From NCBI GenBank assembly GCA_027306505.1, contig DAHUZP010000001.1, forward strand, positions 120,932 through 184,931: a DNA stretch of 64,000 bases. Direction: 5' to 3'. The notes beneath the pieces are model-generated. The model saw nothing but the letters and a program-made list of their open reading frames with translations, had not been told where the DNA came from and searched no databases. The position numbers and the translations under genes are program-made. Source of the DNA: Thermoplasmata archaeon. Lineage in GTDB: Archaea; Thermoplasmatota; Thermoplasmata; Lutacidiplasmatales; UBA184. Below, in pieces: positions 3,688 through 64,000 of the stretch. Positions within the stretch are counted from its first letter, which is position 1. Each line of letters opens with the position of its first letter.

Positions 3688-3741
3688 GCACGTGGGGAGG
3701 AGGGCGAGAAACCCTCTTCCCCCGCTCCGGTTCCACCGGGC

Positions 3742-4575: not shown

Positions 4576-4582
4576 GAGATCC

Positions 4583-5257
4583 ATGACAGAGGGACGGCCG
4601 GGCCCCAGGCTCCCGGGATCGTCGCTCGACGTGCGGAGGAACTGGTCCGCCACGTACCGTTCCACCGCCTTCGAGGACCTCCCGTGGTTCCGCCGTGAGG
4701 CGACCCCATGGATCACAAGGGCCCTCCGTGAACGGTGGATCGACCGGAAGGGGACCCACCTGGACGTAGGGTGTGGGGCCGGCAGCAACGTGCTCTATCT
4801 CGCTTCGCAGGGGTTGCGAGCGGTGGGCACGGACCTCGCGCCTGAAGCGATCCGCGCCGCGTCGGACCGCCACGCGAAGCTCCCGCGAGCGAAGCGGGCG
4901 CGCTTCGTGGTCGGGGACGCCCTGGAGCTTCCCTTCGAAGAGGCCGCCTTCAGCTCATCGAGCGACATCGGATGCTTCCATACGCTTCCCCCCGAGCGGA
5001 GAAAGGACTACGCCCGGGAGCTCTCGCGCGTGGTCAAGCCCGGGGGTCGGCATCTCCTGAGCTGGGCGGCCCGGGAGGAGACCGCAGAGCCTGGACCGCG
5101 CCACCGGCTCTCCGTCCAGGAGGTGGTCGAGGCGATGGAGGAACACTTCCAGTGCCTGCGCGTGGAGTACCAGATGCACCCCCGACAGTGGAAGGGTCTC
5201 CACACCTACTGCGCGGTCCTCGAGCGCCGCTCCGTGCCCCAGCCTGCCCCGCGATGA
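4583..5257 (+). CDS. Class I SAM-dependent methyltransferase
   Basis: It carries the motif I sequence LDVGCGAGSN and an acidic residue after beta-2 (VGTDLAPE), and is about 220 aa. Confidence 0.7.
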   Translation: MTEGRPGPRLPGSSLDVRRNWSATYRSTAFEDLPWFRREATPWITRALRERWIDRKGTHLDVGCGAGSNVLYLASQGLRAVGTDLAPEAIRAASDRHAKLPRAKRARFVVGDALELPFEEAAFSSSSDIGCFHTLPPERRKDYARELSRVVKPGGRHLLSWAAREETAEPGPRHRLSVQEVVEAMEEHFQCLRVEYQMHPRQWKGLHTYCAVLERRSVPQPAPR

Positions 5258-5270
5258 GCGGACGCCGGGG

Positions 5271-5963
5271 TCACCTGGCCTGCCCTGTCTGCCTGGATGA
5301 GGGAGCGGCTGAGCGGGCCATGAGCTCGAGCACCCAGAGGGTCTCCGCGGGAAGAACGCGGTCACCGACCAGGTCGACCACCTGCACCCTTGGGGCGGGA
5401 ACGGGCAGTCCTCGGGTCCGGATAGGGGCGCCGGGTAGAGAGGCCACCAGCAGGTACGCACGCCCTCCAGGGAGAAGGTGGTCCGGGAGGTCGGAGAGGA
5501 AACCTCGGACGAAGGCGAGCCCGTCCGCTCCCCCGTCGAGAGCGAGGTCGTGCCAGGGATCCGGGTCGTGGTCCTCTTCCCCCGTCGGAAGATAGGGAGG
5601 ATTGCAGGCGACCACGTCGAAGCGACCCAACCCGGCAAACAGGTCGGCCCGTACCGCTTCCACCTGCAGGCCCCGAAGCTTCGCTGACGATCGGACCGAG
5701 GCGAGCGCGTGGGGGTTCACATCGGAGCCAACGGCCCTTGCCCCGGCCCGGGCGGCGGTCAACGCGGAGAGGCCGAGCCCACAGCCCACCTCCAAGAATC
5801 GCTCCCCTGGACGGACCGAGAGGGAGGAAGCTAGGAGGACCGAATCCTCCCTCAGCGGGTAGACGTGAGGGGTCGGAAGCAGGTCCAGGTCACGGAGCGG
5901 CACCAGGGGGGAAGGACGACCCGGGGCCGCTTTAGCCCCTCCCCCCCTCCCCTCGGTCCCCAC
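5271..5963 (-). CDS. HemK/Mtq2-type N5-glutamine (release factor) methyltransferase
   Basis: It has the SAM motif LEVGCGLG and the NPPY catalytic tetrapeptide (VVACNPPYLP). Confidence 0.7.
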   Translation of the reverse strand: MGTEGRGGGAKAAPGRPSPLVPLRDLDLLPTPHVYPLREDSVLLASSLSVRPGERFLEVGCGLGLSALTAARAGARAVGSDVNPHALASVRSSAKLRGLQVEAVRADLFAGLGRFDVVACNPPYLPTGEEDHDPDPWHDLALDGGADGLAFVRGFLSDLPDHLLPGGRAYLLVASLPGAPIRTRGLPVPAPRVQVVDLVGDRVLPAETLWVLELMARSAAPSSRQTGQAR

Positions 5964-7240: not shown

Positions 7241-7315
7241 GGGACTGTGGGCTAGCTTGGTCTAGACTTGGGCGTTCGGGACGCTCAGACTCCGGTTCAA
7301 ATCCGGACAGTCCCA
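7241..7315 (+). tRNA. tRNA-Pro (anticodon CGG)
   Basis: The acceptor stem GGGACUG/CAGUCCC is perfect, and the T arm is UCCGG-UUCAAAU-CCGGA. The anticodon stem GGGCG/CGCUC carries a UUCGGGA loop with anticodon CGG at 7277-7279, the discriminator is A, and CCA is not encoded. The D stem is weak, with wobble pairs and one mismatch. Confidence 0.65.
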
Positions 7316-39824: not shown

Positions 39825-41195
39825 CTAGCCGGAAGGCTGGTGGGGTCCGGGCGCGGGGCCCCCAGGAGGAGCGGGGTAGCCCCCGTACGCGGCGAACTGT
39901 CCCCGGTGCGGGAAGTCGACCCGGGGCGGGGGCTCGCGGTCGATGGCCGCCCTCGCATCCGGGAGCAGGAGCTGGCTCAAGGGCAGGCAGGTGGCCAGAT
40001 GGTCGTTGCACCCCTTCACGAGGATACCGGCGAGCCGCCGCACGCCGGCATGCGGGTGGCCGAGCAGCCGGACGAGCTCGCTCTTCCTGTTGTAGAGGGA
40101 AGCCCGCTCGAAGTCACGGGACGAGAAGGCGGGCTTGGTCCGGCCCACCATGCGCCAGAACTGCGGGTCGACCCGGTTCAAGGTGAGGAGCAGCGTCAGG
40201 ACGAGGAAGGCGAAGGAGTCCCCTATCGCTCCGCGGTCGGGCTTCTTGGGCCATTTCGCGCGTCCACTGATCACGTCGGGGTGCTGGAACTCGGGCTGCC
40301 CGACGATGGGGGAAGGGGGCAGGTCGACCCCACGGATCCACAGGCTGTCGTAGTCGACGAGGTGGATGTCGTCCTGGCTGTCGATGAACAGGTTGTCGAA
40401 GCTGATGTCGCCGTGGGAGATCCCCAGTTCCTGGAGATGGTCCGCGAGGGAGAGCACGTTCTGGGTGAGGCGGCGGTACCTCCAGTCGCGCTCGGCCGGC
40501 TCCAGGGTGTCGAGCATCCGCATGTGCTCGTCGAGCGAGGTCCCGGAGGCCCGCTCCATCACGAGGGCGGGGAACCACTCGGCCCGCTTCTGGCCGTTCG
40601 CCCCGGTGAACATGATGTGGGCCCCTTGGTGATAGTACCAGGTCCCGACGAAGACCCCCTTGAGCGAGGAGGAGGTCTGCCAGACCCAGCGCGTGATCGC
40701 AGAGTAACGGGCGTCCGCTGCCGGTAGCCACTGGGTGTGGTAGAGCCGAAGGATCATCGGCGTGGGGTTGTTGTGGCCGAAGAGCAACTGGAAGACGATG
40801 GCGTATCGCCCGCAGGAGCGCCAGGGTGGGCGCGAGGGGTGCGGGAAGGTCATGGGCCGGAAACGGACGTCCAACGGGATTGCCCCCCGCAGGGGGGGAG
40901 CGGCCGTGTGGGGGAAATGGGTCAGCGCCTGGACCACCTCGGAGGGGGAGGGCATCTCCCGACCTGGCACCTGGACCGGTCCCTTCCGACGGAAGAGCCC
41001 CCCTCCGAGCCCCCGGCGCTTCTTCGGCGGAGCGGCAGGTCGGGGGCCCGCGGGCCTCACGGCCGCCGGCGGGGGCACCGGTGGCGGACCGGCGGCCGGT
41101 GGCCCGGCCGGAGGGTGCCCGTAGGGTCGTGCGGGCGGACGTTGCGGGGGTCCCCCCGCAGCGGGCTGCCCGGTCGCCTGTTGCCCCGCGGACAT
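39825..41195 (-). CDS. Atypical protein-kinase-like protein with a Pro-rich N-terminus
   Basis: A catalytic-loop-like ISHGDISFDNLFI (HGD...N) is present, and LVDYDSL sits at the DFG position. The first ~70 aa are a Pro/Ala/Gly-rich low-complexity region. Confidence 0.55.
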   Translation of the reverse strand: MSAGQQATGQPAAGGPPQRPPARPYGHPPAGPPAAGPPPVPPPAAVRPAGPRPAAPPKKRRGLGGGLFRRKGPVQVPGREMPSPSEVVQALTHFPHTAAPPLRGAIPLDVRFRPMTFPHPSRPPWRSCGRYAIVFQLLFGHNNPTPMILRLYHTQWLPAADARYSAITRWVWQTSSSLKGVFVGTWYYHQGAHIMFTGANGQKRAEWFPALVMERASGTSLDEHMRMLDTLEPAERDWRYRRLTQNVLSLADHLQELGISHGDISFDNLFIDSQDDIHLVDYDSLWIRGVDLPPSPIVGQPEFQHPDVISGRAKWPKKPDRGAIGDSFAFLVLTLLLTLNRVDPQFWRMVGRTKPAFSSRDFERASLYNRKSELVRLLGHPHAGVRRLAGILVKGCNDHLATCLPLSQLLLPDARAAIDREPPPRVDFPHRGQFAAYGGYPAPPGGPAPGPHQPSG

Positions 41196-50677: not shown

Positions 50678-52189
50678 TCAGAAGCTCGTCCCGCTGGTGA
50701 AGGTGAACGATCGGGAGACGAGGGGCGAGAGGACGGGGGAGGTGAAGGCCCGTTCGTCGGCGAAGCAGCGCCGGTCCTCGCCCACCGCCTCCACGCCCGC
50801 AAGCGTCTCCAAGATGCTCTCGGTGAAACGTAGGTTCCGGATGGGGTGCTGGACCTCTCCGTTCTCCACCCAGTAGGTGCCGTCCCGCGTCATCCCGGTG
50901 ATGATCGTCCTGCCGGGGTGCACGGCCCGGACGTACCAGAACCGGGTCACGACGATCCCCTGCTTGAGCTCCTTGAGGAGCTCGGTCCGGTCGTGGTCCC
51001 CCGGGGCCATCGTGAGGTGGAGCGGGAGGGGCCCCATCTCCCCGAAGTGCGCCTCAGGAGGAAGGGCATTGCTCGTCGAGGGCACCTTCGCCCGGGAGGC
51101 GGTCAGGTGGTCGTGCGCCGCCCCTTGGGCCACTCCCTCGTGGAAGATGGGACGGGCTCGGTGCGGCATGCCCTCGAAATCGATCGAGGAGGGGACCCCC
51201 ACGGAACAGAAGGGGTCGTCGGTGAGCTCGAAGCTCGGCGCGACCAGGGACCTTCCACGGCCTTCCACGAGGAAGCTCCAACCTTCCTCCACCGCGTGGG
51301 CCCCGAGGCCGAGCCAGGCGAGGTGACCCATGAGCTCGGAGACCGCGGGTCCCATGAGCAGCACCCGGTACTTGCCCGGCTCCACCGCTCGCGGGGCGAC
51401 CCTGGGGGTCGCCGCGACGGCCTCCCGGGCCAAGGCGACGAGGTCGACCTTCGCGGGGTCCCAGTGGGCCCCCTCGGACCATCCCGAGACGGGAGGGTCA
51501 CGATCGGGCAGCTCCGTGAGGAGCGAGGCCTGGGCGGCGCTCCGGAGGAACCCGCGGCGGAGGCCGCGAGAGTTCGCGACCGCGAGCAGGCTCGCCCCCT
51601 GGTTGAACACCCCGGAGATCCGGGCCGGGCCGAGCGACTCCTCCACGACCGAGAAGGCGCCCGCAAGACGGTCGCCGAGCCGCTCCAGGTCCTCGTCCAG
51701 CACGCGACGGGAGAACGGCACCGAGGGAGTGGGGCCCTTCACGTCCTCCGCGAACCCGGGGAAGCCTTCGACAGGCGGCGCGACCGACGCCAGGGCCTTC
51801 GCCCCCTCGGCGAGTCGGCGCAGTCCCTCGGGCGTTAGGTCCGTGGTCGTCGCGACGCCCAGCCGACCGCCGCTCAGCGCGACACGGAGAGAGACCGCCT
51901 TGGTCAGCTCCGCATGGGGCTGGTAGAGACGGGAGTCCGCGCACCGCAGCGTGATCCACCGGTCGTCGTAGTACCGGGCGTCCGCGTCCCCCCCGACGAG
52001 GTCCAAGACCCGGTCCAGCACCTCGAGGCCAGCCTTCAGGTCGGGTTGGGAGGGGTCCTCGCGAGGGGAGGGGCGTGCTCCGCGCGGGGCGGGCCTGGAA
52101 CGGGCGGGAGCGGGGCGACGCGAAGAGCGCCGGGCCCGGTCGAGCGCCGGCTTCTTGGGGGCCGCGCGCCGACGGGCGACAGGGCTCAT
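50678..52189 (-). CDS. pmbA: TldD/PmbA-family metalloprotease (PmbA/TldE paralogue)
   Basis: The PmbA_TldD fold is present. The start is placed at the ATG that overlaps the tldD stop by 4 nt (ATGA). Confidence 0.75.
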   Translation of the reverse strand: MSPVARRRAAPKKPALDRARRSSRRPAPARSRPAPRGARPSPREDPSQPDLKAGLEVLDRVLDLVGGDADARYYDDRWITLRCADSRLYQPHAELTKAVSLRVALSGGRLGVATTTDLTPEGLRRLAEGAKALASVAPPVEGFPGFAEDVKGPTPSVPFSRRVLDEDLERLGDRLAGAFSVVEESLGPARISGVFNQGASLLAVANSRGLRRGFLRSAAQASLLTELPDRDPPVSGWSEGAHWDPAKVDLVALAREAVAATPRVAPRAVEPGKYRVLLMGPAVSELMGHLAWLGLGAHAVEEGWSFLVEGRGRSLVAPSFELTDDPFCSVGVPSSIDFEGMPHRARPIFHEGVAQGAAHDHLTASRAKVPSTSNALPPEAHFGEMGPLPLHLTMAPGDHDRTELLKELKQGIVVTRFWYVRAVHPGRTIITGMTRDGTYWVENGEVQHPIRNLRFTESILETLAGVEAVGEDRRCFADERAFTSPVLSPLVSRSFTFTSGTSF

Positions 52190-53643
52190 GCGGCACCTCC
52201 GATACGGGTCTTCCGGAACAGCCCCAGCGGCGCCCCGTGTCCCACGTGGCCGATCTGGCTGGGCTGACCCTTCCCGCAGTTGGGCAGGCCCCACAGGTGC
52301 CAGGTGGAGCGGTCGGAGGTCGCCTCCAGGGTGTTCCAGAAGATCGGGGTCATCCCGGAGTAGAGGGGGTTGCGGACGAGCTCCCCCAGCTCACCGCGAA
52401 CGATGCGCCGGCCGAGCTCGCATCCGAACTGGAAGTTGAGCCGCTTGTCGTCGATCGACCAGGAACGGTTCGTCTCCATGTACACCCCGTCCTGGACCCC
52501 GCGCAGGAGCTCCTCCCTGGAGCGGTCACCGGCGGTGAGATTGATGTTGGTCATGCGGATGAGCGGCGTCCTCGCCCATCCATCCGCGCGGGCCGTGCCA
52601 CCGGACCGGGGGAGGCCCTGTCGGGCCGCCGTCTCCCGAGAGGAAAGGAAGCCCGCAAGGACCCCCTTCGAGACCAGCGGGTAGCTGCGACCAGGCACGC
52701 CCTCGTCGTCCCAAGGGAAGGTCCCGAGCCCTCCAGGGGAGGTCGCGTCCGCCTCGATGGTCATCGCGGACGACCCGTAGCGGAGCTGCCCCACCTCGGA
52801 CGCCCGGACGAAGCTCGTCCCGGCGTACCCCGCCTCGAAGGCCATCACGCGGTCGAGCTCCGTCGCGTGGCCCACCGATTCATGGACCTGGAGAGCCAGC
52901 TGGTCGCTCGCGAGCACGAGGTCCATCTCCCCTCGGGGACAGGAGGGGGCCGTGAGCAGGGCGTTCGCGGTCCGACCGCATTCCACCGCGTGACCGGGAA
53001 GGTCCATCTCCCGCAGGAACTCGAAGCCCGCCTGGGCGAAGTCCCCTCCGAAGCTCGTGGGGTACGACCGCCTCTGGACCTCGCCTTCCCCCACGGCGGT
53101 CGCCTCGATCCCCCCGCCCACGTGCGTGAGGCGGGTACGGTAGCTCGCCCCCTCGATGGACCGGTACCACTTCTCCTCCTGCCAGAGGGTGAACGAGGCC
53201 TTCCCCGACCGCACCGACGGATGGGTGTGGAGCGCGGCCTCGGACTCCTTGAGCAGACGGACCTTCTCCTCCGTGCTCACGGCGAAAGGGTCCTCGCGCA
53301 TCGGCGTCTCGAAGTGACGGCCCTTGGGGAGCTCCGTCTCCTCCGCGAACGGGACGCTCTTGCGCGTGGTGCGCTCGGCGGCCCTGGCGAGGCGCTCCGC
53401 CCGCTTCGCCGTGAGCCGGACGGACGCGAGGGAGGCCTCACTGGTCGCGGCGAAGCCCCAGCCTCGCTCCCGGAGCACGCGGACGCCGATCCCGGCCTCG
53501 AAGGAGTCCGTGAGCGCTTCCGCGGAGCCGTTCTTGACCGCGAAGCGCTGGTAGCGACGGGGGCCCACGTACCGGACGTCGGCAAAGCGGACCCCGGGTC
53601 GTTCAGCAGCCTCCAGCGCGGCCTCGAGAAGATCCTCGACCAT
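52186..53643 (-). CDS. tldD: TldD-family metalloprotease
   Basis: It contains an HExxxH-type motif (VHESVGHATELD) and is 485 aa. It pairs with pmbA. Confidence 0.85.
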   Translation of the reverse strand: MVEDLLEAALEAAERPGVRFADVRYVGPRRYQRFAVKNGSAEALTDSFEAGIGVRVLRERGWGFAATSEASLASVRLTAKRAERLARAAERTTRKSVPFAEETELPKGRHFETPMREDPFAVSTEEKVRLLKESEAALHTHPSVRSGKASFTLWQEEKWYRSIEGASYRTRLTHVGGGIEATAVGEGEVQRRSYPTSFGGDFAQAGFEFLREMDLPGHAVECGRTANALLTAPSCPRGEMDLVLASDQLALQVHESVGHATELDRVMAFEAGYAGTSFVRASEVGQLRYGSSAMTIEADATSPGGLGTFPWDDEGVPGRSYPLVSKGVLAGFLSSRETAARQGLPRSGGTARADGWARTPLIRMTNINLTAGDRSREELLRGVQDGVYMETNRSWSIDDKRLNFQFGCELGRRIVRGELGELVRNPLYSGMTPIFWNTLEATSDRSTWHLWGLPNCGKGQPSQIGHVGHGAPLGLFRKTRIGGAA

Positions 53644-53682
53644 GTCCTCGTCCGAACCTCGCCCGAACGATCGGGAGGAGGG

Positions 53683-54651
53683 TCAGAGAGCGACCTTGAG
53701 GTTGAGCTTTTCGGTGAGCTCCTTGTAGCGGTTGCGGATTGTGACCTCGGTCACGCCCGCCACCTCTGCGACCTCGCGCTGCGTGCGGCGCTCCCCGCAC
53801 TGCAGCGACGCGATGTAGATCGCGGCCGCCGCGACGCCGGTGGGCCCGCGCCCGCTCGTGAGCTCGCGCTCCGTCGCGTCCTTGAGGATCTCGTTAGAGC
53901 GGGTCTGGACCTCGCCCTTGAGCTTGAGCTCGGAGCAGAAGCGCTGCACATAGTCCTGGGGGCGCGTGGGGAGCAATCGGAGCCGGAGCTCCCGGGTCAT
54001 GAACCGGTAGGTGCGACCGATCTCCTTGCGGCCGATGTGGCTCTTCGCCGCGATCTCGTCCAGCGTCCGGGGAACGTTGCACTGGCGGCAGCTCCCGTAG
54101 AGCGAGGCTGCGACGACCCCTTCGATGGAGCGCCCGCGGATCAAGTTGCGGTTCACGGCCTTGCGGTAGATCATCGCGGCCGTCTCCCGAACGTTGCGGG
54201 GGAGGGCCATGGCGCTCGCGATCCGGTCGAGCTCCGCCAAGGCGAAGGCGAGGTTCCGCTCGGTCGCGTTCGAGACCCGGATGCGCCGCTGCCACTTCCG
54301 CAGCCGGTAGAGCTGGGCCCGGTTGCGCGTGGGGATGCTCTTGCCGTAAGGGTCCTTGTTCTTCCAGCCGATCTCGGTGGAAAGACCCTTGTCGTGGATG
54401 GTGAGCGTGCTGGGAGCTCCGGCCCGGGCGCGCTTCTCGCCCTGCTCCGCGTCGAAGGCCCGCCAATCCGGACCCTGGTCGATCATGCTCTCTTCGAGCA
54501 CCAGGCCGCACTCGTCACAGACGAGCTCGCCCCGGTCGTAGTCCTTGGTGAGGTGGTTCGACCCGCAGCTCGAGCAGCGGACCGGCGCGCTGGTCTCTCC
54601 CTCGGGAGCGGCACCCGCCGCCCCGGGGGAGGGACGTCCATCAGTGCTCAC
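53683..54651 (-). CDS. tfb: Transcription initiation factor IIB (TFB)
   Basis: It has an N-terminal zinc ribbon CSSCGS...CDECG, a B-finger, two cyclin-fold repeats and a C-terminal HTH ([20 protein letters not shown]). Confidence 0.9.
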
Positions 54652-54937
54652 GGCGCCGCACCTCCATCAAGAGCTCCGTGCCCACAAGGGCCAAGGCCTC
54701 CTCCGCTGGGAGGGAGCGCCGGGGGGCGATCGAGAGGTAAGGGTGGGCGACCGGTCCGAAGACCCGGACGACCCGGCCCCGGAAGCGTCCGGAGGGGTCC
54801 GTCACGATGGTGCCCTCATCGACGACACGCTCCGCCCGGACCGTGAACGTCCCCCGTGCGGAAATGGAGCAGACCCGGCCGACCTCACGCCGCTCCGAGG
54901 CGGTGAGCGGTCCCGCGGGTCGATGAGGGCTGGACAA
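54641..54937 (-). CDS. gar1: H/ACA ribonucleoprotein subunit Gar1
   Basis: It reads [17 protein letters not shown] and is 98 aa. It starts with TTG, and the gar1-tfb adjacency is conserved in archaea. Confidence 0.75.
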
Positions 54938-54962
54938 GGGGTATTAGCGACTTACGATACAG

Positions 54963-54970
54963 GTATAAAG
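54963..54970 (-). promoter_or_regulatory. TATA-box-like element for gar1-tfb (reads CTTTATAC on the coding strand)
   Basis: The AT octamer lies 26-33 nt upstream of the gar1 TTG start in an otherwise GC-rich spacer, which implies a leaderless transcript. Confidence 0.35.
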
Positions 54971-55068
54971 CTTGTTGGCGCCGGCGCGCCCTCTGGCCCT
55001 CTGGCCCTCAGACATCCCATGACCGTCATCGAGCCGGAGGCCCCGGTCCCACGTTTCTCGCTGGAGGA

Positions 55069-56228
55069 TTGACCGAAACCTACTTACTACCATACCCACC
55101 ACTATGGGTGAGTATGTCCTTCATCAGGACCGTCATCAAGGGGGGGCGCAAGTACCGCCAGCGGGTCGAGTCGTACTGGGACCGGAAGGCCAAACGGTGC
55201 CGGACCCGTGTCCTCGAGCATCTGGGACCGGTGGACCCGGTCTATCCTCGGGCCCGGACCACCCTGCTCCAGACCCTCCCTCTGGAGACGCCCCACTTCG
55301 GTCTCCTCGCCACCCGCATCATGAGCGGAACCCTCACCCTCGCCCACATCGTCCAGGCGGTCCACGACATGGGGGAAGAGATGCCCCTGGGCGATCTCGA
55401 GGCCGTGGGCATCCGCTTCGAGCTCGACGCCAAGAAAAGGCCTCGCCTCGCGCTCCTCCTCTGGCCCGCGCCTCCCTCGCCCTCCCCCCGCCCTGCCCGG
55501 TCTGCCAGACACCCCGGGAGGTCCAGCGCCAGCGCGAGCCCACCTCCCTCCTCCCCCTGGACGGGCCCGCCGCCGTAGCGCTCCCCGTCTGGGGGTGCCC
55601 GAACGACCACCCCCATGACAGTTGGGTCCTCTGGACCTCCTCCCTCCGCGAGACCCTCGCCCGCACCTACCCCGTCCTCGGCATGGACGGGATGATCGCG
55701 GTGGGGCTCGCGCGCTTCGGCCTCGACCTCGACCTCCCGGAGAGGAGGGTCCAGGCTCTCTTCGAGGACGGGTGTACCCTTCCCCTCGCCCAGAGCACGG
55801 TCTCCCGCCTCTCCGTCGAGTTCCTGGTGCGCTGGCGGATGCTCTGCGAGGCACGGCTGCCGAAGGTGGTCCGAGCGCTCGGGGGGCTGGTGGCCCAGTT
55901 CGACGGAACGGGGGAGCCTTCGGGAGGGAAGCGCGTCACCTACCGTGCCCGGGAGGGCCGCCACGGGTTCACCCTGTGGTCCGACCCCCTGGTGTCCGAG
56001 AGCGAGGACGAGGTCGCCCGTCAGGACCCTGAGGAGGTGGCTCGGCGGATCGAGGCGCTGCCCAAGGAGGGGAGGCGGCCGAGCGTGGAGCTGAAGAAAG
56101 GGCGGGAGGAGGAACAGCTCGAGGGATTCCTACGGGCGTTGAGGGGTCCTGGACCGTTCGACTCCGAGGTCATGGCCTGGGCGATCTCGGTCGGGTGCGA
56201 GCCCCAGGGCGAGGTCACCCCTCAATGA
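55069..56228 (+). pseudogene. IS1634-family transposase-like remnant split across two frames
   Basis: The N-terminus MSFIRTVIKGGRKYRQRVESYWDRKAKRCRTRVLEHLGPVD resembles the conserved IS1634 transposase N-terminus (V.L..NVWDPEKGR....V.YNFGR). The continuation shifts frame near 55440-55470 (…CPVCQTP…). The total is about 385 aa, against about 550 aa for intact enzymes, and there is no clear DDE motif. Confidence 0.3.
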
Positions 56229-56314
56229 CGGTTATTGGATACGAGAGCTCTGGCCCCCCTCTGGAACCTCCCCTCGCTCGCGACGTAAAACGCATCCCCC
56301 GATCAGGCCGGAAC

Positions 56315-58009
56315 TCACCCCTCCGGCAGCTCCTCGCGGATCTCCGCGAGCTTCGCCTCCGCCTCTGCAGCCTTCCCTGCCTTGACCAGGACCGTGAGCT
56401 CCTTGAGCAACGAGCCGGCCTTGCCGATCCGCTGCTTCTTCTTCTGGCGGTCGCGGACCTGAACCCCCAGTTCCCGGGCCTCCGCGATGATCTGGGCGAG
56501 GGAGCGGGGCGGAGCGGGCGCGTGCTCCTCGCCCGTCTCGGGGGCCGAGGGCTCGATGTGAGCCTCGGAAGTGACCCCGGAAGCAGGGGTGGAGGTGGGT
56601 TCGGCCGAAGATGCGCTCCCAGAACGGGACGGGGAGGGTTCCGAAGCCGAGGGGGCCTCCTGCGCACGGTCGGAGGTCGTCGAGCCGGCCGTCGGTACCG
56701 CCTCGTCCCCCTCCGAACGGCCCATGCCGGGGCCTGTGGGAAGCTCACCGGAAGACGGGGGGGACGCAGCGTCGCCCGCGTTCGCAAAAGCGGAAGCAGG
56801 GGCCTCCGCCGAGGTGGCGGAGGACACGCCCTCGGAACTTGCGGGCACGGAGGGGGCCGGCTCGGTCGTGCCCGCCTCGCCTGCTTCGGATGGGGCTGCG
56901 CCGGGGTCCGAGGAGGGACGCGCGGGGGAGAGGAAGCTCCCACGGAAGTCGATCATCTCCTCGCTCGCCTCCTTGAGCCGTCCCGCCCGGGCGTGCCCAA
57001 GGATCGCCTTGAGGTGCGTCTCCGCCTTCTCCCGCTCGCCGGGGGGAGGGGGATGGGCCCTCAGGCTACGGATCGCCTGCTGGCCCAGGAGAGCGATCTG
57101 GTTGCGGACCTGCTCGTGAAGGAGCACCAAGGCCGCCGAGGCCTGCGTCCCGGCCTCCTGCAGGGTCGCGGCGGAAAGGCTCGGCTCCGCGAGCGTCTCG
57201 CGGACCTGTCCCAGACGCTCGTCGGCCTTGGACATGTCCATACCGAGCTTCATCCCGGTCTCACGCAGGCCGTCCACCTTGTGGAGGGTGTCCTTCACCT
57301 GCTTCCACGCGCCCTCGAGCTCTGCGAGGGCACGTTGGGCCCGGGTCAGCACCTCTACGGCCTCGATACGGGCCCCCTCGGCGAAAGCGGTGCGCGAGCG
57401 CGAGACGTCCCGCGCCACGTCGGCCGCGATCCCGTCCTCCCGCAGGCGACCTTCCTGCTCCTCGAGCTGGGTCGCGAGGGATTCGAAACGCGAGCCGAGC
57501 TGCGGTTCGAGCTGGTCGTAAGCGTCCCTGAGGACCTTGAGGCTCTCGTCCATCGCCCCCCTGGCGGCGGCCATCGCCGCCGCGGTGAGGGCGGAGGCGA
57601 CATCGCCCGTGTCCAACCCCATCAGCTGGGCCACCTTGAGCGAGGCTTGGAGCGCCACCGCGGTCTGCTCCATGTTGAGCCCGGAAGCCGAGGAGGGCGG
57701 GACCTCCGGCCCCGGTTCGAGGATCGGGAGCACCACCGGCGTCGGCTCGATCCCCCCAGGTGTCGACGTATCCGAACGGGGGAGAGCTCCTCCACCCTCC
57801 GAGACGGGGGTGGGCTGCGCTACCTCCTCCTGGACGGCCTTTCTGGCCTCAGGTAGGAGGGCGGTCGGGAACCCGCATGACGGGCAGCGGGAGGTCTCCG
57901 AACCCAGCGCGCCGTCACAAATGGGGCAGGTCTCCCCTCCGACCTTCCCCTCGGTGCTCGTGCTCACCACCACGCTCGGTCCCCCTACCCCGCCTCCACT
58001 AGAACGCAA
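56315..58009 (-). CDS. Hypothetical protein: N-terminal zinc ribbon, a central helical region, a Ser/Pro/Ala/Glu-rich disordered region and a basic C-terminal helix
   Basis: It reads CPICDG...CPSCG near the N-terminus and has a long low-complexity tract. The C-terminus reads QVRDRQKKKQRIGKAGSLLKELTVLVKAGKAAEAEAKLAEI. Confidence 0.5.
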   Translation of the reverse strand: MRSSGGGVGGPSVVVSTSTEGKVGGETCPICDGALGSETSRCPSCGFPTALLPEARKAVQEEVAQPTPVSEGGGALPRSDTSTPGGIEPTPVVLPILEPGPEVPPSSASGLNMEQTAVALQASLKVAQLMGLDTGDVASALTAAAMAAARGAMDESLKVLRDAYDQLEPQLGSRFESLATQLEEQEGRLREDGIAADVARDVSRSRTAFAEGARIEAVEVLTRAQRALAELEGAWKQVKDTLHKVDGLRETGMKLGMDMSKADERLGQVRETLAEPSLSAATLQEAGTQASAALVLLHEQVRNQIALLGQQAIRSLRAHPPPPGEREKAETHLKAILGHARAGRLKEASEEMIDFRGSFLSPARPSSDPGAAPSEAGEAGTTEPAPSVPASSEGVSSATSAEAPASAFANAGDAASPPSSGELPTGPGMGRSEGDEAVPTAGSTTSDRAQEAPSASEPSPSRSGSASSAEPTSTPASGVTSEAHIEPSAPETGEEHAPAPPRSLAQIIAEARELGVQVRDRQKKKQRIGKAGSLLKELTVLVKAGKAAEAEAKLAEIREELPEG

Positions 58010-58094
58010 GGACTACTTGGGTGGTGCGCCACCCGTCTTCGACCCGAGAAAGGGCTCCCCTCCTGAGGATTCCGTTGTCTCGCTCCCATCGACC

Positions 58095-58322
58095 TCAACC
58101 TCCCGAGAAGCTCCGGACGATCTCGAGGTCCCCGGGTCCAGGCACCGGCAGGTCGCTCGGAACGGGCTCACCGTTCCAGAAGAGGACGGTCCCTTCGGGG
58201 GGAAGGCCTAGGGTCTGAAGCAGGGCCTTCAGGGGGCTCCCAGGGGAGACGGAGACCGACGTGGGCTCCCGGCCTTCGAACCCCGAAGCGAAGATCAATC
58301 GGACCTCCACGGTGGGGGCCAC
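58095..58322 (-). CDS. Small ubiquitin-like beta-grasp protein of the MoaD/ThiS/SAMP family ending in Gly-Gly
   Basis: The C-terminal 72 aa read TVEVRLIFASGFEG...LFWNGEPV...GDLEIVRSFSGG-stop. The longer supplied ORF (to 58553) overlaps tRNA-Ser, so the start is placed at the internal GTG, which is uncertain. Confidence 0.5.
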   Translation of the reverse strand: MAPTVEVRLIFASGFEGREPTSVSVSPGSPLKALLQTLGLPPEGTVLFWNGEPVPSDLPVPGPGDLEIVRSFSGG

Positions 58323-58513
58323 CGTGGCGGGGGCCGGTGTGGGGCCCCCCTTGTAGGAGCCCTGCGATGCTGAGCGAGCGGGCGGAGCTCGAGGTCCCGG
58401 TGGAGGGGAGGTCTCCTTGCCGCGCGTTCGGGGCGTCACTTCCTTCCTCGGTGCTCCGGTTCGAACGTAGGTGCGGGATGGGGTGGGGGTCCTCGGTCTT
58501 GGAGAGGCGGGAG

Positions 58514-58597
58514 CGCTGAGGGGGAGATTTGAACTCCCGAGGGGTTGACCCACCGGTTTTCGAGACCGGCGCCTTGACCGGGCTAGGCTACCTCAGC
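58514..58597 (-). tRNA. tRNA-Ser (anticodon CGA), class II with a long variable arm
   Basis: The acceptor GCUGAGG/CCUCAGC is perfect, the D stem is GCCU/AGGC, and the anticodon stem CCGGU/ACCGG carries the loop CUCGAAA. The variable arm is UGGGUCAACCCCUC, the T arm is GGGAG-UUCAAAU-CUCCC, and the discriminator is G. CCA is not encoded. Confidence 0.8.
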
Positions 58598-58624
58598 ACC
58601 TCGAGGGCGCGAGACGGGAGGGTT

Positions 58625-59668
58625 CTATACTCTTGCGGCGCGGGCCGCAGGCGGAGCCGAGAGCGTCCGCTTCATCCGGTCGATCCCCATGATCGGGACC
58701 GGGTCGACCCCTCGCAAGCGGGCGGACCAGAGCGTGACGTAGTCCGCGGCCCAGAGGAGGTCAAGAAGCTCCGCGAGCGCTCCACGGGAGGGGGAGGCAT
58801 AGGTCTCGACCCCGACGCCCTTCTCCCGTAAGGCGCGCTCGAGGTACTGGGCCCGGCCATCCGCTTCCGGTCCCTCCCCGCCGCCGCGCAGGAGGACGAC
58901 GAAACGGTCGCGGGCCCGCTCGGGGGCCAGGACCTCCCAGGGCACGATCGCGTTGTGGAGGAGCTCAGGGAAGGTGTCGAAGTGGGAGAGCACCTTCGCG
59001 TTCTCCTCGGCCTGGGTCTTCCAGCGACGCGCGACCGCGGCGAGAGCGTCCGGGGCGTAGACCCAGAGGTCACGAGCACCCCCCCAAGCTTCCGCGATGG
59101 CCCGGGGCCTACCGGACCCTCCGGAGAACTCCTCCGCCCGCGCATCCAGCGACTCGGAGGCCCGGGGAAGGTCCCGAACCGTGCCAGGTAGTGCTTCTCG
59201 TAGGACACCAGCGAGGGCGCCCATGAGGTAGCCCAGGCTGGCTCGCGGAGGCTGTCCTCCCGGCACTTGGACCTGGAGCAGACCCTCCTTCTTCGCGAGC
59301 TCGCCCAGGCGCCCGCCTGAAGCGACCACCGCCCGCTCCACCCCCCGCCGTCCGGCCTCTTCGAAGGAGGCGAGCGTCTCCGCCGTGTCTCCGGAGTAGC
59401 TCACCGCGACCAGAGGGACCGGGGGCCGCACCCAGGTCGGGAGGTGCGAGCCGCGGACCGGGAGCAACGGGGTTTCGCTCTCCCGCGAAGCGAGCGACGC
59501 GAGGAGCTCTCCGGCGATCCCGCTCCCACCCATCCCCGCGACGGCGACCGGGACACCGGGGCGGAGCGCGAAGTCGTGGCGAGGGACGCTCCTGAGACCG
59601 TCACGAAGCTGTCGGGGGAAGGCGGCGGCCAAGGCCCACATCCGGCCCTCGCCCTCGGGAGCGGTCAC
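58625..59668 (-). CDS. Bifunctional phosphoglucose/phosphomannose isomerase (SIS-domain, archaeal PGI/PMI family)
   Basis: It reads VAGMGGSGIAGELL...VAVSYSGDTAETL and is about 347 aa. Confidence 0.75.
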   Translation of the reverse strand: MTAPEGEGRMWALAAAFPRQLRDGLRSVPRHDFALRPGVPVAVAGMGGSGIAGELLASLASRESETPLLPVRGSHLPTWVRPPVPLVAVSYSGDTAETLASFEEAGRRGVERAVVASGGRLGELAKKEGLLQVQVPGGQPPRASLGYLMGALAGVLREALPGTVRDLPRASESLDARAEEFSGGSGRPRAIAEAWGGARDLWVYAPDALAAVARRWKTQAEENAKVLSHFDTFPELLHNAIVPWEVLAPERARDRFVVLLRGGGEGPEADGRAQYLERALREKGVGVETYASPSRGALAELLDLLWAADYVTLWSARLRGVDPVPIMGIDRMKRTLSAPPAARAARV

Positions 59669-59980
59669 GCCCCGTCCAAGGGGTGGCCCTAGATAGCTCT
59701 TCGACCCGAGGTGGCACGCCCCGTCGGACCGACCCCACGGCGCGCGAGGGCGAGACCGCGCCCGGGGGACCCACCGAGGGGGGCGGCCCGCTGGGGCAGC
59801 TCTGCCAAGGGGGGATCCGGCGAAGTACCCTGCCCCTATCGGGCGGTAGCCTTAACAGCCCTCTCTACCCTCCCTTCCCCGAGCGATCTTGCGGCCTGCC
59901 CTTTCCCCATTCTCCCGTCGTTCCCGGTCCACATCTCCCTCGGGAACTTGGCTCGCGGAATAGAGAGGGCGGCATAGCGG

Positions 59981-62900
59981 ATGCAGCGGGCGTTCCTGGG
60001 ACCCCACATCAAGATCCCGACGGGGATCGATGGGTTGGACCGGATGCTCCAAGGCGGCGTCCTGCCCGGACGCCCATACCTCGTGGTGGGCCCTCCCGGG
60101 AGCGGGAAGACCACCCTCGCGCTGGAGTTCCTTCTACGGGGAGTTCGACAGGGCGAGGACGTGCTCTACGTCACGCTCGAGGAGCCCCCGAACGAGCTTC
60201 GGGAGAACTTCGCCGGTCTCGGCGAGGGGCTCGACAAGATCTGGGTCTTCGACGCGATCCCCGACATCATGCGCTACGAGAAGACCCCGTTCAAGGACAT
60301 CGCGGCGGTCCGCAGCGCGACGCGCCTGGGGGATATCCCTACCGAGATCCGGAAGACCGGGGAGTTCACCAGCGTCGAGATCACTTTCAGCGCGCTGATG
60401 CAGACGCTCAAGATGGAGACCGTCCGGCGGCTCTACAGCCGGATCGTGATCGACTCGCTCACGGCGCTCCAATACTTCTGCATGAAGGGCTTCGACGAGG
60501 CCCAAGGAGCCCAGGCCTTCCTCCGTTTCCTCTCGGACCTCAGGATCACCTCGCTGCTCACCGTCGAGGCTCCCGAGAACGGACGACCGACCGCGGAGCG
60601 CCTCCTCGCCCGAGGGGAGATCCACCTCTTCCGTTGGGACATCGCCGGAAGCATGGTGCGGGCAATCGGGATCGAGAAGATCCGCGGGAGCCCCCACGAC
60701 CACCGGTTGCACCCCTTCCGGGTCTCCTCGCACGGGCTCGACGTGGACACCAGCGTCGCGATCTCCCGCAACACCCGGACCGTGGTGTCGGTGCCTTCGG
60801 AAGAACCGGAGGCGACGACCGAGCCCTCGGAGACCGAGCTCATGATCGAGGCGCGTCGGGCCATCCTCACGATCCAGGAGGATGTCCAGGACCTCCTCGA
60901 CGTGGGGGTCGACGTGGACATGGTCCGGGAGCTGGTCCAGCAGGCCCACGGAGCGCTCTCGCGGATGCAGACCCGAGAGTCGCTGCGCCTCCTTCTCGAG
61001 GCCCGTCAGCTGGTGAACCACCTGGTGCTGGGCTACCAGGTGTCCCAGGAGTTCGCCGCGAAGGGGGCCCAGGCGAGCTGGCCTTCCCTTGCGATGCGTA
61101 GGCAGGTGGAGGCTACGCTGGGTCGCGTGGCCACCACCGCACCCGACTCAGGCACCGCGCCGAAGGCCGCCCCCGTCGCCGCTTCTCCCTCGGTCGCCCC
61201 GGTCGGACCAAGCGTTCACGGCCCGAGCGGACCTGGGGTCGGGGAGACCACGGCGCCGCCACGTCCGGCGACGTCGCCGCTCCCCGCGCTGTCGCAAGCG
61301 ACTCGCGAGTCCGCGGCGAACCTGCTCCCGCTCCTCACCCGTCTCATGGGCGCGCTGGGGAGCAAGTCGAACAGCAGCATCGCCGAGAACCTGCCGGCGG
61401 CGCTCATCCAGCGGGCGGCCGCGGTCGCCGGTGCTCAGAACATTCCGGGCCTCCTCCCGCCGCCGGAAGCGACGACCGCTCCCCCCCCAGCACCCACCCC
61501 CGCGACACAGGACGCGCCTGCGACCCACGCGGCCGAGCCTTCGGTTACGTCTGGAACCGGAGGGGCTGGCGCTCCCCCCACGAACGCCTCGGCCCCCGCG
61601 ATCACCGCCCGCTCTGAGCGTTCGGTTCCCGCGCCCTCTCCTGTGGCCCCCCCACCCCCCGTGACGCCCGCGGTCGTGGCCCCCGCGGCCGCTCCTGCTC
61701 CTCGCTCCCCAGCGCCGGCCGCTCCGAGCGCTCCACCTCCGGTCGGCCAACCCTCGCGGGCGGTCGTCGGCGCGGCGCAGCATCCGTCGGCCACCGGCCC
61801 GGCCTCCCCTGCGACTCCAGCGTCGGAGACCCCTGCACGTCCGGTGGCGGGGCCTGCTTCACCCATGGGAACGAGTCCCACCCCGCCGACCTCACCTCCC
61901 CCGGTTCGGCCTCCCGTCGGCCCGCCCGCCAGCCAGACTTCCCCTACGACGGCTCGACCCTCGGCGCCCTCTTCTTCGACTGCTTCCGTTCCTGGGGTTC
62001 CGCGACCCGCCGCCTCCGCGCCTGAACGACCCGGTGCCCCGTCCGGGGGAGGGGTTCCGCCCGGGCCGTCGTCGGCCCCTGGAGCGACGCCGGTCCCTCG
62101 AGCGACCCCCGTCGCTTCCCAGGCTCCGCAACCTCGCCCGGCTCCCTCCGCGGCAGCCCCACCTGCAGCTCGGGGGCCCGCGAGCGCGGTTCCCCCTTCG
62201 AACCCTCAGCCTCGCCCTACCCCCTCCTCGAGCACGGGTCCAGTTCCCTCAGCGGCGCGACCGCAGCCGGGGAACGTTCCACCGCAGGCCCCCCGCGCCC
62301 CGGGGACGTCACCCCTACCCCCAGCGCCGAAGATGCCCGGTTGGGCCCCCCTGCCACCCGTGCCGAAGATCCCCAGCCTTGCCCCCAATATCGCGAAACC
62401 TCCTGCAACATCTCCGAACCTATCCGGCGACCCCGCCGCAGCCCGTGCTCCGGGCGCCTCCAGCGGGTCGACCGAAGGGAAGCCTGCGTCACCTTCCGCA
62501 GCGCCTGCAGCGACCCTGCCGCCAGCAGCCTCAAGCCCGGGCCGCGAACCTGTCGCTGCGCAGACCCCTTCGGCCCCGACGGCGAGACCCGCTTCCCAGG
62601 CAGTTTTCCCCACCAGTCCTAGGGCGCCCTCCCCTACGCCCGCGGGCCCGGGCCCATCGGGGGTTCCGGCCCCCGCCCCGACCCCTCGCTCCACCGCGTC
62701 AGAGTACTCGGCAACGACCCCCACCGGCGAGCGCACGCTGCCTGGTGCCTGGTCCAACGCCCCGCCGCGAGCCCCTTCCACCGGCCCCACCCCAGCACCT
62801 GGTCCCGGGGGCGCACCGCCGTATTCCTCCACGGCACGAACCACGCTTCCCCCGAACAGGACCACCGGTGGTCCGCAACCGAGCGAGGGGCCGTCCGGCC

Positions 62901-63928
62901 GGGTGGGAGCTCCTGTGACCCGCCCGAACCAGGTCCCGCCCCAGCGTGCAGGACCGCTGAGCGGTTCCGGAAGGATCGGGCCCTCCACGTCGCCACCCAC
63001 CTATCGTCCGCCCGCGGGCAGTGGGATCCGGGAGGTGACCCGTCCGGCGGGCCCGACCACCGGCGCGGGGACTCCTGTGGACGCGAGGCCGCACTCCCCT
63101 CCCGGCAGCACGGGACCTGCCGCCGTCGCGACAGCCGCCCCCGTGTCTCCACCCGCCGCGCCTCCTCCGGAACCGAGCGTGGCCGCACCCGTTCCTCCAC
63201 CGCCCGAGGCTTCCCCCCCATCCGCTCCACCCGCTCCCGCTGCGGAGCCCGAGCCCGCGCCGCCTTCACCACCGCCGCCTCCGCCACCCCCTCCTGAGGG
63301 AACCCCGGCACCAGAGGTGCCCATCACCCCTCCGGGGCTGCCACCTCCGCCGGCCCAGGAGCCGCCGTCGGTGGCCCCGGACGTCGCCGAGGCCGACTCG
63401 GGCCCGGCAGCGCTCGCTCGAGCCCCGATCGACCGCGAGCTCGTTCAGGACGCCGCTCCGAGCCCATCCGAGGAGCCCGAGCAGCCCCCCAACTCCGTCG
63501 AGCCCCCCGCTCAAGCTGAGCCGACTCGAGAGGGCAGCCTCCCCGCCGACCACCCAACGGAAGCCCAGGTCGACTCCGCGGAACCGTCCTTCGCTCAGGC
63601 GCCCGCCCGGACGGAAGGTGCCCCTGCTGAGACCCCTCAGGCCCCCGAGACCAGGCCCGCGGACGAGGCGGCCGCACCGACCTCACCGGAAGGGCCCGGG
63701 ACCGAAGAGGCATCGCGTCCGAAGGCGCGCAAACGGAGGTCCACGGGCACCCGCTCGAAGCGACGCAAGAAAGGCGCCTCCATCGAGGAGAGCGTGTCGA
63801 GCGCCGCAGTGAAGACGGCGGACGGAGAGGCCGCCCCCGAAGCGGAGGAGGTCGCCGCTCCAGGGCCTGGTTCGGACGAAGGAGACCCTTCCTCGGAGCC
63901 TTCGACCCGCGAGGACACGGGGAGCTAG
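59981..63928 (+). CDS. KaiC/RecA-superfamily ATPase fused to a ~900-aa Pro/Ala/Ser/Thr-rich disordered tail, an acidic segment and a basic C-terminal patch
   Basis: The N-terminus reads GIDGLDRMLQGGVLPGRPYLVVGPPGSGKTTLALEFL (Walker A) with a Walker B-like IVIDSLT. From about aa 380 to 1200 the sequence is low complexity. The C-terminus reads RPKARKRRSTGTRSKRRKKG. Confidence 0.7.
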   Translation: MQRAFLGPHIKIPTGIDGLDRMLQGGVLPGRPYLVVGPPGSGKTTLALEFLLRGVRQGEDVLYVTLEEPPNELRENFAGLGEGLDKIWVFDAIPDIMRYEKTPFKDIAAVRSATRLGDIPTEIRKTGEFTSVEITFSALMQTLKMETVRRLYSRIVIDSLTALQYFCMKGFDEAQGAQAFLRFLSDLRITSLLTVEAPENGRPTAERLLARGEIHLFRWDIAGSMVRAIGIEKIRGSPHDHRLHPFRVSSHGLDVDTSVAISRNTRTVVSVPSEEPEATTEPSETELMIEARRAILTIQEDVQDLLDVGVDVDMVRELVQQAHGALSRMQTRESLRLLLEARQLVNHLVLGYQVSQEFAAKGAQASWPSLAMRRQVEATLGRVATTAPDSGTAPKAAPVAASPSVAPVGPSVHGPSGPGVGETTAPPRPATSPLPALSQATRESAANLLPLLTRLMGALGSKSNSSIAENLPAALIQRAAAVAGAQNIPGLLPPPEATTAPPPAPTPATQDAPATHAAEPSVTSGTGGAGAPPTNASAPAITARSERSVPAPSPVAPPPPVTPAVVAPAAAPAPRSPAPAAPSAPPPVGQPSRAVVGAAQHPSATGPASPATPASETPARPVAGPASPMGTSPTPPTSPPPVRPPVGPPASQTSPTTARPSAPSSSTASVPGVPRPAASAPERPGAPSGGGVPPGPSSAPGATPVPRATPVASQAPQPRPAPSAAAPPAARGPASAVPPSNPQPRPTPSSSTGPVPSAARPQPGNVPPQAPRAPGTSPLPPAPKMPGWAPLPPVPKIPSLAPNIAKPPATSPNLSGDPAAARAPGASSGSTEGKPASPSAAPAATLPPAASSPGREPVAAQTPSAPTARPASQAVFPTSPRAPSPTPAGPGPSGVPAPAPTPRSTASEYSATTPTGERTLPGAWSNAPPRAPSTGPTPAPGPGGAPPYSSTARTTLPPNRTTGGPQPSEGPSGRVGAPVTRPNQVPPQRAGPLSGSGRIGPSTSPPTYRPPAGSGIREVTRPAGPTTGAGTPVDARPHSPPGSTGPAAVATAAPVSPPAAPPPEPSVAAPVPPPPEASPPSAPPAPAAEPEPAPPSPPPPPPPPPEGTPAPEVPITPPGLPPPPAQEPPSVAPDVAEADSGPAALARAPIDRELVQDAAPSPSEEPEQPPNSVEPPAQAEPTREGSLPADHPTEAQVDSAEPSFAQAPARTEGAPAETPQAPETRPADEAAAPTSPEGPGTEEASRPKARKRRSTGTRSKRRKKGASIEESVSSAAVKTADGEAAPEAEEVAAPGPGSDEGDPSSEPSTREDTGS

Positions 63929-64000
63929 AGCTCCCGGGAGGTTGTGGGACGAATGGTGGTAGGGCGAGGCCGACAGGACGGACGCGCGGGCTCCGGCATC

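Follow-up and report, generated by a model that had tools for sequence, protein, structure and literature searches.

The DNA analysed here (the window) is a stretch of 64,000 nt from contig DAHUZP010000001.1 (GenBank assembly GCA_027306505.1, positions 120,932 to 184,931 of the forward strand), uniformly GC-rich (~69 %). Near its 3′ end, on the + strand at 59981..63928, lies a complete coding sequence of 1315 amino acids (aa) plus stop, which comparison with relatives marks as a genuine protein-coding gene of an uncultured, high-GC Thermoplasmata archaeon. Its ATG at 59981 is the first codon past an in-frame upstream stop, the TAG stop occupies 63926–63928, and orthologues share the MQRxF start. 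The product carries a KaiC-like ATPase domain, a helical linker and a tail that includes ~830 residues predicted to be disordered, and a second, short KaiC-like gene starts just downstream. Among the tailed KaiC-like ATPases of Thermoplasmata, a so far unstudied family whose members are paired with a short KaiC-like protein, it is the extreme case; a search of the literature on KaiC-like proteins with disorder, or in Thermoplasmata, found nothing on this tailed family. An earlier note, written from the letters of the window and its open reading frames (ORFs), had described an intact KaiC-family ATPase with a very long, translated, disordered Pro/Ala/Ser-rich tail. Orthologues, substitution rates and structure prediction support this description, although the note had missed both the conserved partner gene and the basic motif that terminates the tail family-wide.

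Coding status of the tail

GC-rich DNA yields long spurious ORFs, and the usual signature of coding sequence, a high GC content at third codon positions (GC3), is missing from the tail: GC at codon positions 1/2/3 is 0.76/0.79/0.72 in the tail versus 0.64/0.44/0.90 in the ATPase. The ORF was therefore not accepted at face value and comparative tests were made. An artefact could arise from a frame open by chance, from repeat collapse or from fusion through a frameshift, and the true protein would then stop behind the linker. When the tail DNA was shuffled 1000 times, none of the shuffles (0/1000) held an open frame of at least 915 codons, the maximum being 805, and the remaining five frames of the tail DNA contain 5–11 stops each. 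A long open tail frame by chance alone is unlikely, although not absurd. Tandem Repeats Finder (TRF) and a direct-repeat search detected no substantial tandem or dispersed DNA-level repeats; repeat collapse during assembly, a concern of the earlier note, is thus not an issue.

Comparison with an orthologue in an independent public assembly (L002, Logan SRR22746116, positions 1432–5379) offers what we regard as the decisive evidence for a coding tail. This orthologue likewise has 1315 aa, with 97 % identity across the first 400 residues. In a frame-blind nucleotide alignment, the 23 gaps include 19 whose length is a multiple of three; the remaining four form local pairs, 13+2 and 2+1, within ~30 nt, such that the frame is never lost. 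The frame of a further relative (L001, 88 % identical) is open as far as its contig end. The ratio of nonsynonymous to synonymous substitution rates (dN/dS, Nei–Gojobori) between the window and L002 rises from 0.04 for the ATPase and 0.07 for the linker to 0.15 at aa 451–500 (within and beyond a helical island described below) and 0.30–0.38 in the Pro-rich part (overall tail ~0.35); it is 0.59 for the acidic block, the fastest-evolving part, as measured over aa 1171–1250, and 0.30 in the basic patch plus tip, the tail values being rough.

The earlier note had proposed that the tail would be an artefact if orthologues ended shortly after the ATPase or if close relatives carried stop codons in the frame. 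Instead, a Pro-rich tail is kept in frame by each of the 54 complete genes studied from other genomes, nearly all of them with the terminal basic motif, close relatives measure 884–1315 aa, and L002 preserves both frame and length. The start of the partner gene also follows the stop codon by 25 nt, as in relatives. The artefact explanation is effectively refuted and retains almost no probability.

Domain structure

The ATPase domain occupies aa 12–256 (60014..60748; + strand, like every feature of the gene). It matches Pfam PF06745 with an E value of 4e-36 and 125 bits against a gathering cut-off of 26.6, covering profile positions 1–227 of 231, and its best PDB sequence matches are KaiC chains (E 5e-33). 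The Walker A motif or P-loop GPPGSGKTT, recognized previously (aa 37–45, 60089..60115), has G37, G40, G42, K43 and T44 invariant in a 20-sequence family alignment, with GK[TS] kept in 80 of 80 relatives. LEEPP (aa 66–70, 60176..60190) places a Glu pair where the catalytic glutamates of KaiC lie, and in the PDB sequence alignment it is matched to the ‘TFEE’ region of KaiC; of the two glutamates, E67 never varies and E68 hardly ever does. In the Walker B motif VIDSLT (aa 156–161, 60446..60463) D158, S159, L160 and T161 are invariant in the same 20 sequences. Judged by its motifs, the single ATPase domain is catalytically intact, and since these motifs are invariant it is expected to be active. 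A family-specific insertion, VFDAIPDIMRYEKTPFKDIAAVR (aa 89–111, 60245..60313), interrupts the domain; nearly all of its residues are invariant family-wide, and it is mostly gapped or badly aligned against KaiC in the PDB alignment.

AlphaFold2 (AF2) was run on aa 250–1315 with a 13-sequence alignment. The helical linker noted previously corresponds to aa 284–384 (60830..61132), where three helices at aa 284–362 are predicted with a predicted local distance difference test (pLDDT) of 89–96, followed by a weaker fourth helix at aa 370–384. Further along, a conserved helical island, LSQATRESAANLLPLLTRLMGALG...NLPAALIQRAAAVAGA (aa 437–485, 61289..61435), is kept in relatives down to 58 % N-terminal identity and is modelled as four short helices at aa 439–484 (pLDDT 66–75). 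From aa 489 to 1315 (61445..63925) no secondary structure is modelled and pLDDT stays below 50. This segment, composed of 27 % P, 19 % A, 11 % S, 8 % T and 8 % G and marked by the frame-preserving indels described above, is predicted to be disordered on the basis of AF2 and composition.

A five-way alignment of species-level relatives shows conserved islands amid otherwise diverged filler. The first, LPPAPKMPGWAPLPPVPKIP (aa 779–798, 62315..62374), ends in WAPLPPVPKIP (aa 788–798); [WF][AT]P[LI]PPVPK[IMV]P is kept in five species-level relatives with diverged flanks, and a partial protein (P0001) breaks off in an aligned, related Pro-rich stretch (...PKAPAFAPIPP). The second, PR...EYSATTPTGERTLPGAWS (aa 902–925, 62684..62755), contains EYSxxxPTGxRxLPGxW at about aa 908–924. 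The third, GSGRIGP...YRP...GIREVTRP (aa 995–1022, 62963..63046), follows the pattern GxGRIGP...RP...GIRExxRP, and a G[LI]ER[VI]RL motif occupies a comparable place in short-tailed relatives (P0002–P0005).

The tail closes with an acidic block (aa 1134–1245, 63380..63715; 24 D/E versus 8 K/R in aa 1133–1250), a polybasic patch, RPKARKRRSTGTRSKRRKKG (aa 1246–1265, 63716..63775), and an acidic C-terminal tip (aa 1266–1315, 63776..63925; 11 D/E versus 2 K/R in the last 44 residues) that is near-identical in L002. An acidic stretch followed by a Lys/Arg patch had already been reported in the earlier note. Residues 1251–1314 share 75 % identity with the L002 orthologue versus 45–53 % in the flanking tail. 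In nearly all complete relatives a K/R patch, or a pair of them, lies in the last ~100 residues, with family consensus KRRRR..APRKK and KPKRRxVRKRKAPPV. The alignments depict the tail as a set of short motifs strung on a compositionally constrained spacer and closed by a polybasic element between acidic segments.

The family in Thermoplasmata

In a first homologue search all matches listed were shorter than 700 aa, and these already showed Pro/Ala-rich C-termini ending in K/R patches. Close relatives that share the layout of the window protein, of 884, 966, 1005, 1107, 1120, 1143 and 1315 aa, emerged from an exhaustive search of representatives; the window protein itself had no exact entry in the collection searched. 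When GTDB species representatives, one genome for each species, were scanned, 80 loci were recovered, 57 with a complete gene, of which 54 were analysed for tails; all 80 are from Thermoplasmata except one assembly recorded as ‘bacterium’. Tails in the 54 genes measure 244–818 aa (median 379), with 18–37 % P (mean 28 %) and ~13 % hydrophobic residues, and the tail is absent from none, the minimum being ~244 aa. No member with the family layout seen among the close relatives and in the species scan is longer than the window protein and its L002 orthologue.

Five features define the family: the insertion (VFDAIPDVMRYE..PFKDI), the helical linker, the Pro-rich tail, the C-terminal K/R patches and the short KaiC partner. 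All five are found in the window gene and the same five in nearly all complete relatives. By this comparison the architecture is the family norm in Thermoplasmata, and within it tail sequence and length evolve fast (from 244 to 915 aa) while reading frame, composition and terminal basic motif are kept.

Exactly equal gene lengths occur in two close pairs, the window and L002 (1315 aa, despite ~21 in-frame indels) and L009 and L010 (3585 nt, despite 9). If indel direction is random, the chance of zero net length change is 0.055 and 0.125, respectively, jointly ~0.007, in what is a post hoc test of two species pairs. The equal lengths may reflect short-term selection on tail length. Given that length varies four-fold across the family, any such constraint is only local.

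Two relatives, L025 (1271–5929) and L055 (5893–8571), have atypical tails, with many K/R patches along their length and less Pro/Ala (combined P, A, S, T and G fraction 0.46–0.49). L025 encodes 1552 aa, and a downstream partner gene was not detected. These tails may represent a different tail flavour or a gene fusion.

Partner gene and fused paralogue

The window ends within the partner gene, the first 16 codons of which (MVVGRGRQDGRAGSGI) lie at 63953..64000 (+); 15 of the 16 residues match the L002 partner. A Shine–Dalgarno-like GGAGGT (63937..63942, +) precedes the start by 10 nt, and the same element is present in L002. There the partner is a 268-aa KaiC-domain gene located 25 nt after the tailed orthologue, a spacing shared by the window. 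Of the 57 complete loci, 56 have the partner at −28 to +63 nt of the tailed gene's stop, and its start codon frequently overlaps that stop. Partner genes are short (~256–276 aa) and lie in the same orientation as the tailed gene, at operon spacing.

In the partners of L002 (5404–6210) and L008–L014 the Walker A Lys has changed to Arg (GPNGSGRT; GDSGSGRT in L014). Among 55 partners compared the change occurs in 7, exactly the clade closest to the window, all with at least 63 % N-terminal identity; the other 48 keep GK[TS]. In the window's clade the partner may be a non-hydrolysing subunit.

Fused paralogues with two KaiC domains (P0009–P0016, 584–627 aa) have the same helical linker without a disordered tail. 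In P0010 the N-domain shares 47–48 % identity with the tailed protein and is followed by the same three-helix linker, after which the C-domain shows 52 % identity to the partner (E 6e-83) versus 30 % to the N-domain. P0010 and a split pair (L060) occupy different loci of one assembly (GCA_050011075.1), and P0010 is therefore a paralogue. The fused form supports the tailed protein and its partner acting like halves of a double-domain KaiC. Where the tail begins, the fused protein continues into its second domain; the tail thus sits exactly at that position. The P0010 gene (L088 6877–8727) adjoins an APH-type kinase gene.

Composition and codon usage of the tail

Across aa 401–1170, P (28 %), A (19 %), S (11 %), G (8 %) and T (8 %) make up ~75 % in total, so the low-complexity region is real but the earlier wording, ‘almost entirely’ these five residues, was overstated. 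A PxxP-like periodicity, also suggested earlier, did not emerge: the tail contains 61 PxxP versus 61.3 expected from the shuffled sequence, and the lag-3 autocorrelation of Pro positions has a z-score of −0.06.

Since proline codons are GC-rich, compositional bias had been offered as a source of the Pro tracts. Among 54 relatives, however, the Pro fraction of the tail is unrelated to flanking GC (rho −0.04), which argues against mutation pressure as the explanation of Pro richness; Ala rises weakly with GC (rho 0.37). Tail GC3 is also below expectation, at 0.72 observed versus 0.86 from window codon usage, and GC pressure as the main driver of Pro content was rejected.

The GC3 drop is general. 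In 54 of 54 relatives GC3 is lower in the tail than in the ATPase, with means of 0.76 and 0.90 (the window segments compared being 61181–63925 and 59981–61180). Within well-aligned identical runs, four-fold-site divergence from L002 is 0.46–0.63 in the tail versus 0.20 in the ATPase plus linker, and the tail exceeds the ATPase 2–3-fold in synonymous divergence; for the neighbouring PGI-like gene synonymous divergence (dS) is 0.43. Constraint on synonymous sites seems weaker, or their mutation faster, in the disordered part, with relaxed selection on them the favoured, not proven, cause of the GC3 drop. Avoidance of C-runs was rejected as a cause, as the fraction of C at third positions is 0.36 with or without a following CCN codon. 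CCG accounts for 34 % of tail Pro codons, and a tRNA-Pro(CGG) gene is located in the window at 7241–7315 (+).

Relation to known KaiC-like proteins and other systems

By profile and motifs the tailed protein is a member of the KaiC/RecA superfamily; a hexameric ring would be expected from the behaviour of the family. Among its closest known counterparts are the single-domain archaeal KaiC-like ATPases, such as PH0284/2dr3 (Pyrococcus), PH0186/2zts and SSO2452/2w0m (Sulfolobus), and the families TIGR03877, TIGR03880 and TIGR03881. Shared with these are a domain of ~245 residues, Walker A, the Glu pair and Walker B (2dr3, E 1.5e-17, aa 11–258; TIGR03877 aligned over aa 11–257). However, the single-domain proteins end after the ATPase (235–251 aa), whereas the tailed protein adds the insertion, the linker, ~830 disordered residues and the basic motif, and it scores far below every NCBIfam cut-off (e.g. 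74 versus 307 bits). No named family above cut-off emerged from NCBIfam, from PADLOC or from Pfam on the linker and first part of the tail (aa 254–506).

Cyanobacterial circadian KaiC (CI–CII) gives the best sequence and fold matches, and the tailed gene plus its partner supply two KaiC-type modules. Circadian KaiC fuses both; here they are separate genes, a helical domain and a giant disordered tail standing in for the connection, and the window's clade differs further in the Arg of the partner's Walker A. Assignment as circadian KaiC was rejected (NF006799, 103 versus 408 bits; TIGR02655, 62 versus 546 bits; one PF06745 domain, not two in tandem). No KaiA or KaiB Pfam families occur among the called neighbours in L002–L007, and upstream in the window lie the PGI-like gene and a tRNA-Ser.

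Several other assignments were likewise rejected. For ArlH/FlaH, NF004723 gives 21.7 versus 194 bits and the ArlH model matches only the partner (24 versus 215 bits); no arl genes lie near the loci in the neighbourhoods of L002–L007. RadB or ‘RAD55 family ATPase’, the name on some NCBI records of relatives, is contradicted by TIGR02237 (23.4 versus 172 bits) and NF006861 (26 versus 278), and GvpD by PF07088 (18.8 versus 24 bits, P-loop region only). As to an anti-phage defence ATPase, the sole PADLOC match is to mad8, partial and over the P-loop (32.6 bits, aa 28–157). The synteny of the locus is stable and housekeeping-like (TFIIB, PGI) across the class, and a defence-island context was not encountered.

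In design the tail recalls unrelated proteins. FtsZ couples a globular NTPase to a disordered, often Pro-rich linker that is variable in length and sequence and ends in a conserved short, sometimes basic peptide that anchors. It differs in having a tubulin-like GTPase fold, linkers usually of 50–300 aa, and a known partner and anchoring target. The C-terminal scaffold of RNase E is a long non-globular region with short docking motifs and Arg-rich segments, and in TonB a polyproline-II-like Pro-rich spacer spans a fixed distance. Both are bacterial, with unrelated catalytic domains and no detected homology; the likeness is one of design only.

Genomic context

Upstream synteny (window ~50678–59668) is kept in L003–L007, relatives with only ~47–68 % N-terminal identity. 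In L003–L006 it comprises TFIIB, a small ORF, one or two unknown proteins of ~330–450 aa and a divergent PGI-like gene with an SIS domain; L007 has a variant. PmbA/TldD genes occur in L001, L003 and L004. In the window the upstream PGI-like gene is confirmed by Pfam, with tRNA-Ser(CGA) just downstream of it (58513–58597, −), and a 564-aa zinc-ribbon/coiled-coil protein (56315–58009) is, by position, putatively one of the unknown proteins of the synteny. Between the divergent PGI-like gene and the tailed gene, GGCGGTAGCCTTAACAGCCCTC (59842–59863) forms a block with many invariant columns across four relatives amid otherwise diverged flanks. It may be a promoter (a TTAA core resembling a TATA box/B recognition element) or another regulatory element.

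Similar Pro-rich segments had been reported in other genes of the window. Short ones do exist, but they are an order of magnitude shorter and of mixed character: the giant protein has ~100 Pro-rich residues after a transmembrane helix, and the stretch in the zinc-ribbon protein (~150 aa) is acidic and Ser/Ala/Pro/Glu-rich, not Pro-rich. A kinase-like protein (39825–41195, −) begins with ~57 Pro/Ala/Gly-rich residues followed by a basic patch, PPKKRRGLGGGLFRRKGP (KKRR), all within ~75 residues; on its sequence this N-terminus reproduces on a small scale the KaiC tail's combination of a Pro-rich stretch and a polybasic patch.

Proposed function

With moderate confidence we favour the view that the two genes encode a KaiC-like ATPase split into two modules, its tail serving as a flexible tether that bears motifs and a polybasic anchor. 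The tailed protein and its short partner would work together, probably as a ring like their KaiC/RecA relatives, and the tail would occupy the place of the former inter-domain connection. As a long, flexible, polyproline-II-rich spacer it would keep the polybasic anchor, together with a few docking motifs, clear of the ATPase. In this way the ATPase could become tethered to a polyanion (nucleic acid or an anionic membrane surface) or clients be recruited to it. The spacer sequence would be nearly free to drift, with selection keeping its presence, composition, approximate length over the short term and terminal motifs. The spacer is suggested because motif islands are conserved amid diverged filler and because lengths are equal in the two close pairs.

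Several points weigh against this tethered, split ATPase. Interaction with the partner is argued from gene order plus one fusion paralogue, and the AF2 model of fused P0010 (pLDDT 62.7, predicted template modelling score 0.45) is uninformative on domain arrangement, Foldseek matching KaiC domain by domain with a TM-score of ~0.3. The Arg in the partner's Walker A means that a simple picture of two active rings may be wrong in the window's clade. Low pLDDT from a 13-sequence alignment is compatible with disorder but no proof of it, and a simple charge–hydropathy test classed the Pro-rich part as ‘folded’; that test was judged unsuitable for Pro/Ala-rich sequence and set aside. The dN/dS values of the tail derive from low-complexity alignments and are correspondingly rough. 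The basic patch is proposed to bind nucleic acid or a membrane purely from its charge, and the four-fold variation in tail length across the family speaks against a precise ruler.

Alternatively, the tail could be a multivalent scaffold or condensate region, or a Ser/Thr-rich phospho-acceptor of a KaiC-type autokinase, with the ATPase pair regulating assembly of a hub. KaiC-family proteins are autokinases, and archaeal KaiC-like ATPases were reportedly proposed as signalling hubs by Makarova, Galperin and Koonin. Conserved motifs with aromatics (W788, Y909, W924, Y1008) are spaced along the tail, aa 489–1315 contain 160 Ser/Thr, and oppositely charged blocks lie at the tail end. However, aromatic or charged ‘stickers’ are very sparse (F, W, Y and M together are ~1 % of the tail), and the canonical KaiC phosphosites are in the CII domain, which would be the separate partner here. 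Such a scaffold or phospho-substrate is compatible with all observations and overlaps with the tether, from which sequence cannot separate it; as an account of its own we consider it doubtful.

A less favourable view is that the tail is translated but functionless filler, a short linker expanded by slippage and indels, such that the ATPase, the linker and perhaps the basic patch are what matters. Protein identity between the window and L002 is 51–56 % in the tail, with many indels, versus 98 % in the ATPase, and the four-fold length variation, the relaxed GC3 in every relative and the raised synonymous divergence even in well-aligned runs all suit such filler. On the other hand, tail dN/dS is clearly below 1, the tail is lost in no relative, and the Pro fraction stays at 18–37 % whatever the GC. 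The motif islands and the far-terminal basic patch are conserved, so the frame must be kept through the whole tail, and gene lengths are equal in two close pairs despite many indels. We regard pure filler as unlikely.

That the tail is an extracellular or envelope-associated Pro/Thr-rich linker, as in secreted and S-layer-associated proteins whose Pro/Ala/Ser/Thr composition it resembles, is highly improbable even with a GT4 glycosyltransferase downstream in several relatives. The N-terminus leads directly into a cytoplasmic P-loop ATPase; the composition profile has no strongly hydrophobic 50-residue block, and no long hydrophobic run was seen when the translation was read (no dedicated signal-peptide or transmembrane predictor was used). 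The glycosyltransferase is encoded on the opposite strand and is not shared by every locus (present in L003–L006, not L007).

Implications for the family

Long disordered regions are, to our knowledge, scarce in archaeal proteomes and their functions there almost unexplored. The architecture described here is unusual for archaea and lends itself to experiment, and we infer its function from sequence. It offers a clean case: a family-wide tail under purifying selection on a well-understood ATPase fold, with conserved terminal and internal motifs, natural four-fold variation in length, and a fused, tail-less paralogue as a built-in control. It is thus a prokaryotic setting for asking what a polyproline-rich spacer does and whether its length is selected, and equally for asking how KaiC-like modules work once split into two genes. 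The relaxed GC3 and faster synonymous change in the tail additionally provide a handle on codon-usage selection in the folded versus disordered parts of one gene.

A bolder form of the tether, which we think improbable at present, is that what was once the linker between two domains has become, in a split KaiC-like ATPase, an entropic tether of up to ~830–915 residues that is selected and controlled in length, the hexamer bearing six polybasic-tipped arms. If this is true and the protein is hexameric, each of the six polyproline-rich arms would have a contour length of ~250 nm (estimated at ~0.3 nm per residue), and the assembly would organize nucleic acid or membrane across a considerable part of the cell. 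It would amount to a eukaryote-style disordered scaffold in an archaeon, paired in the window's clade with a Walker A K-to-R pseudo-ATPase partner.

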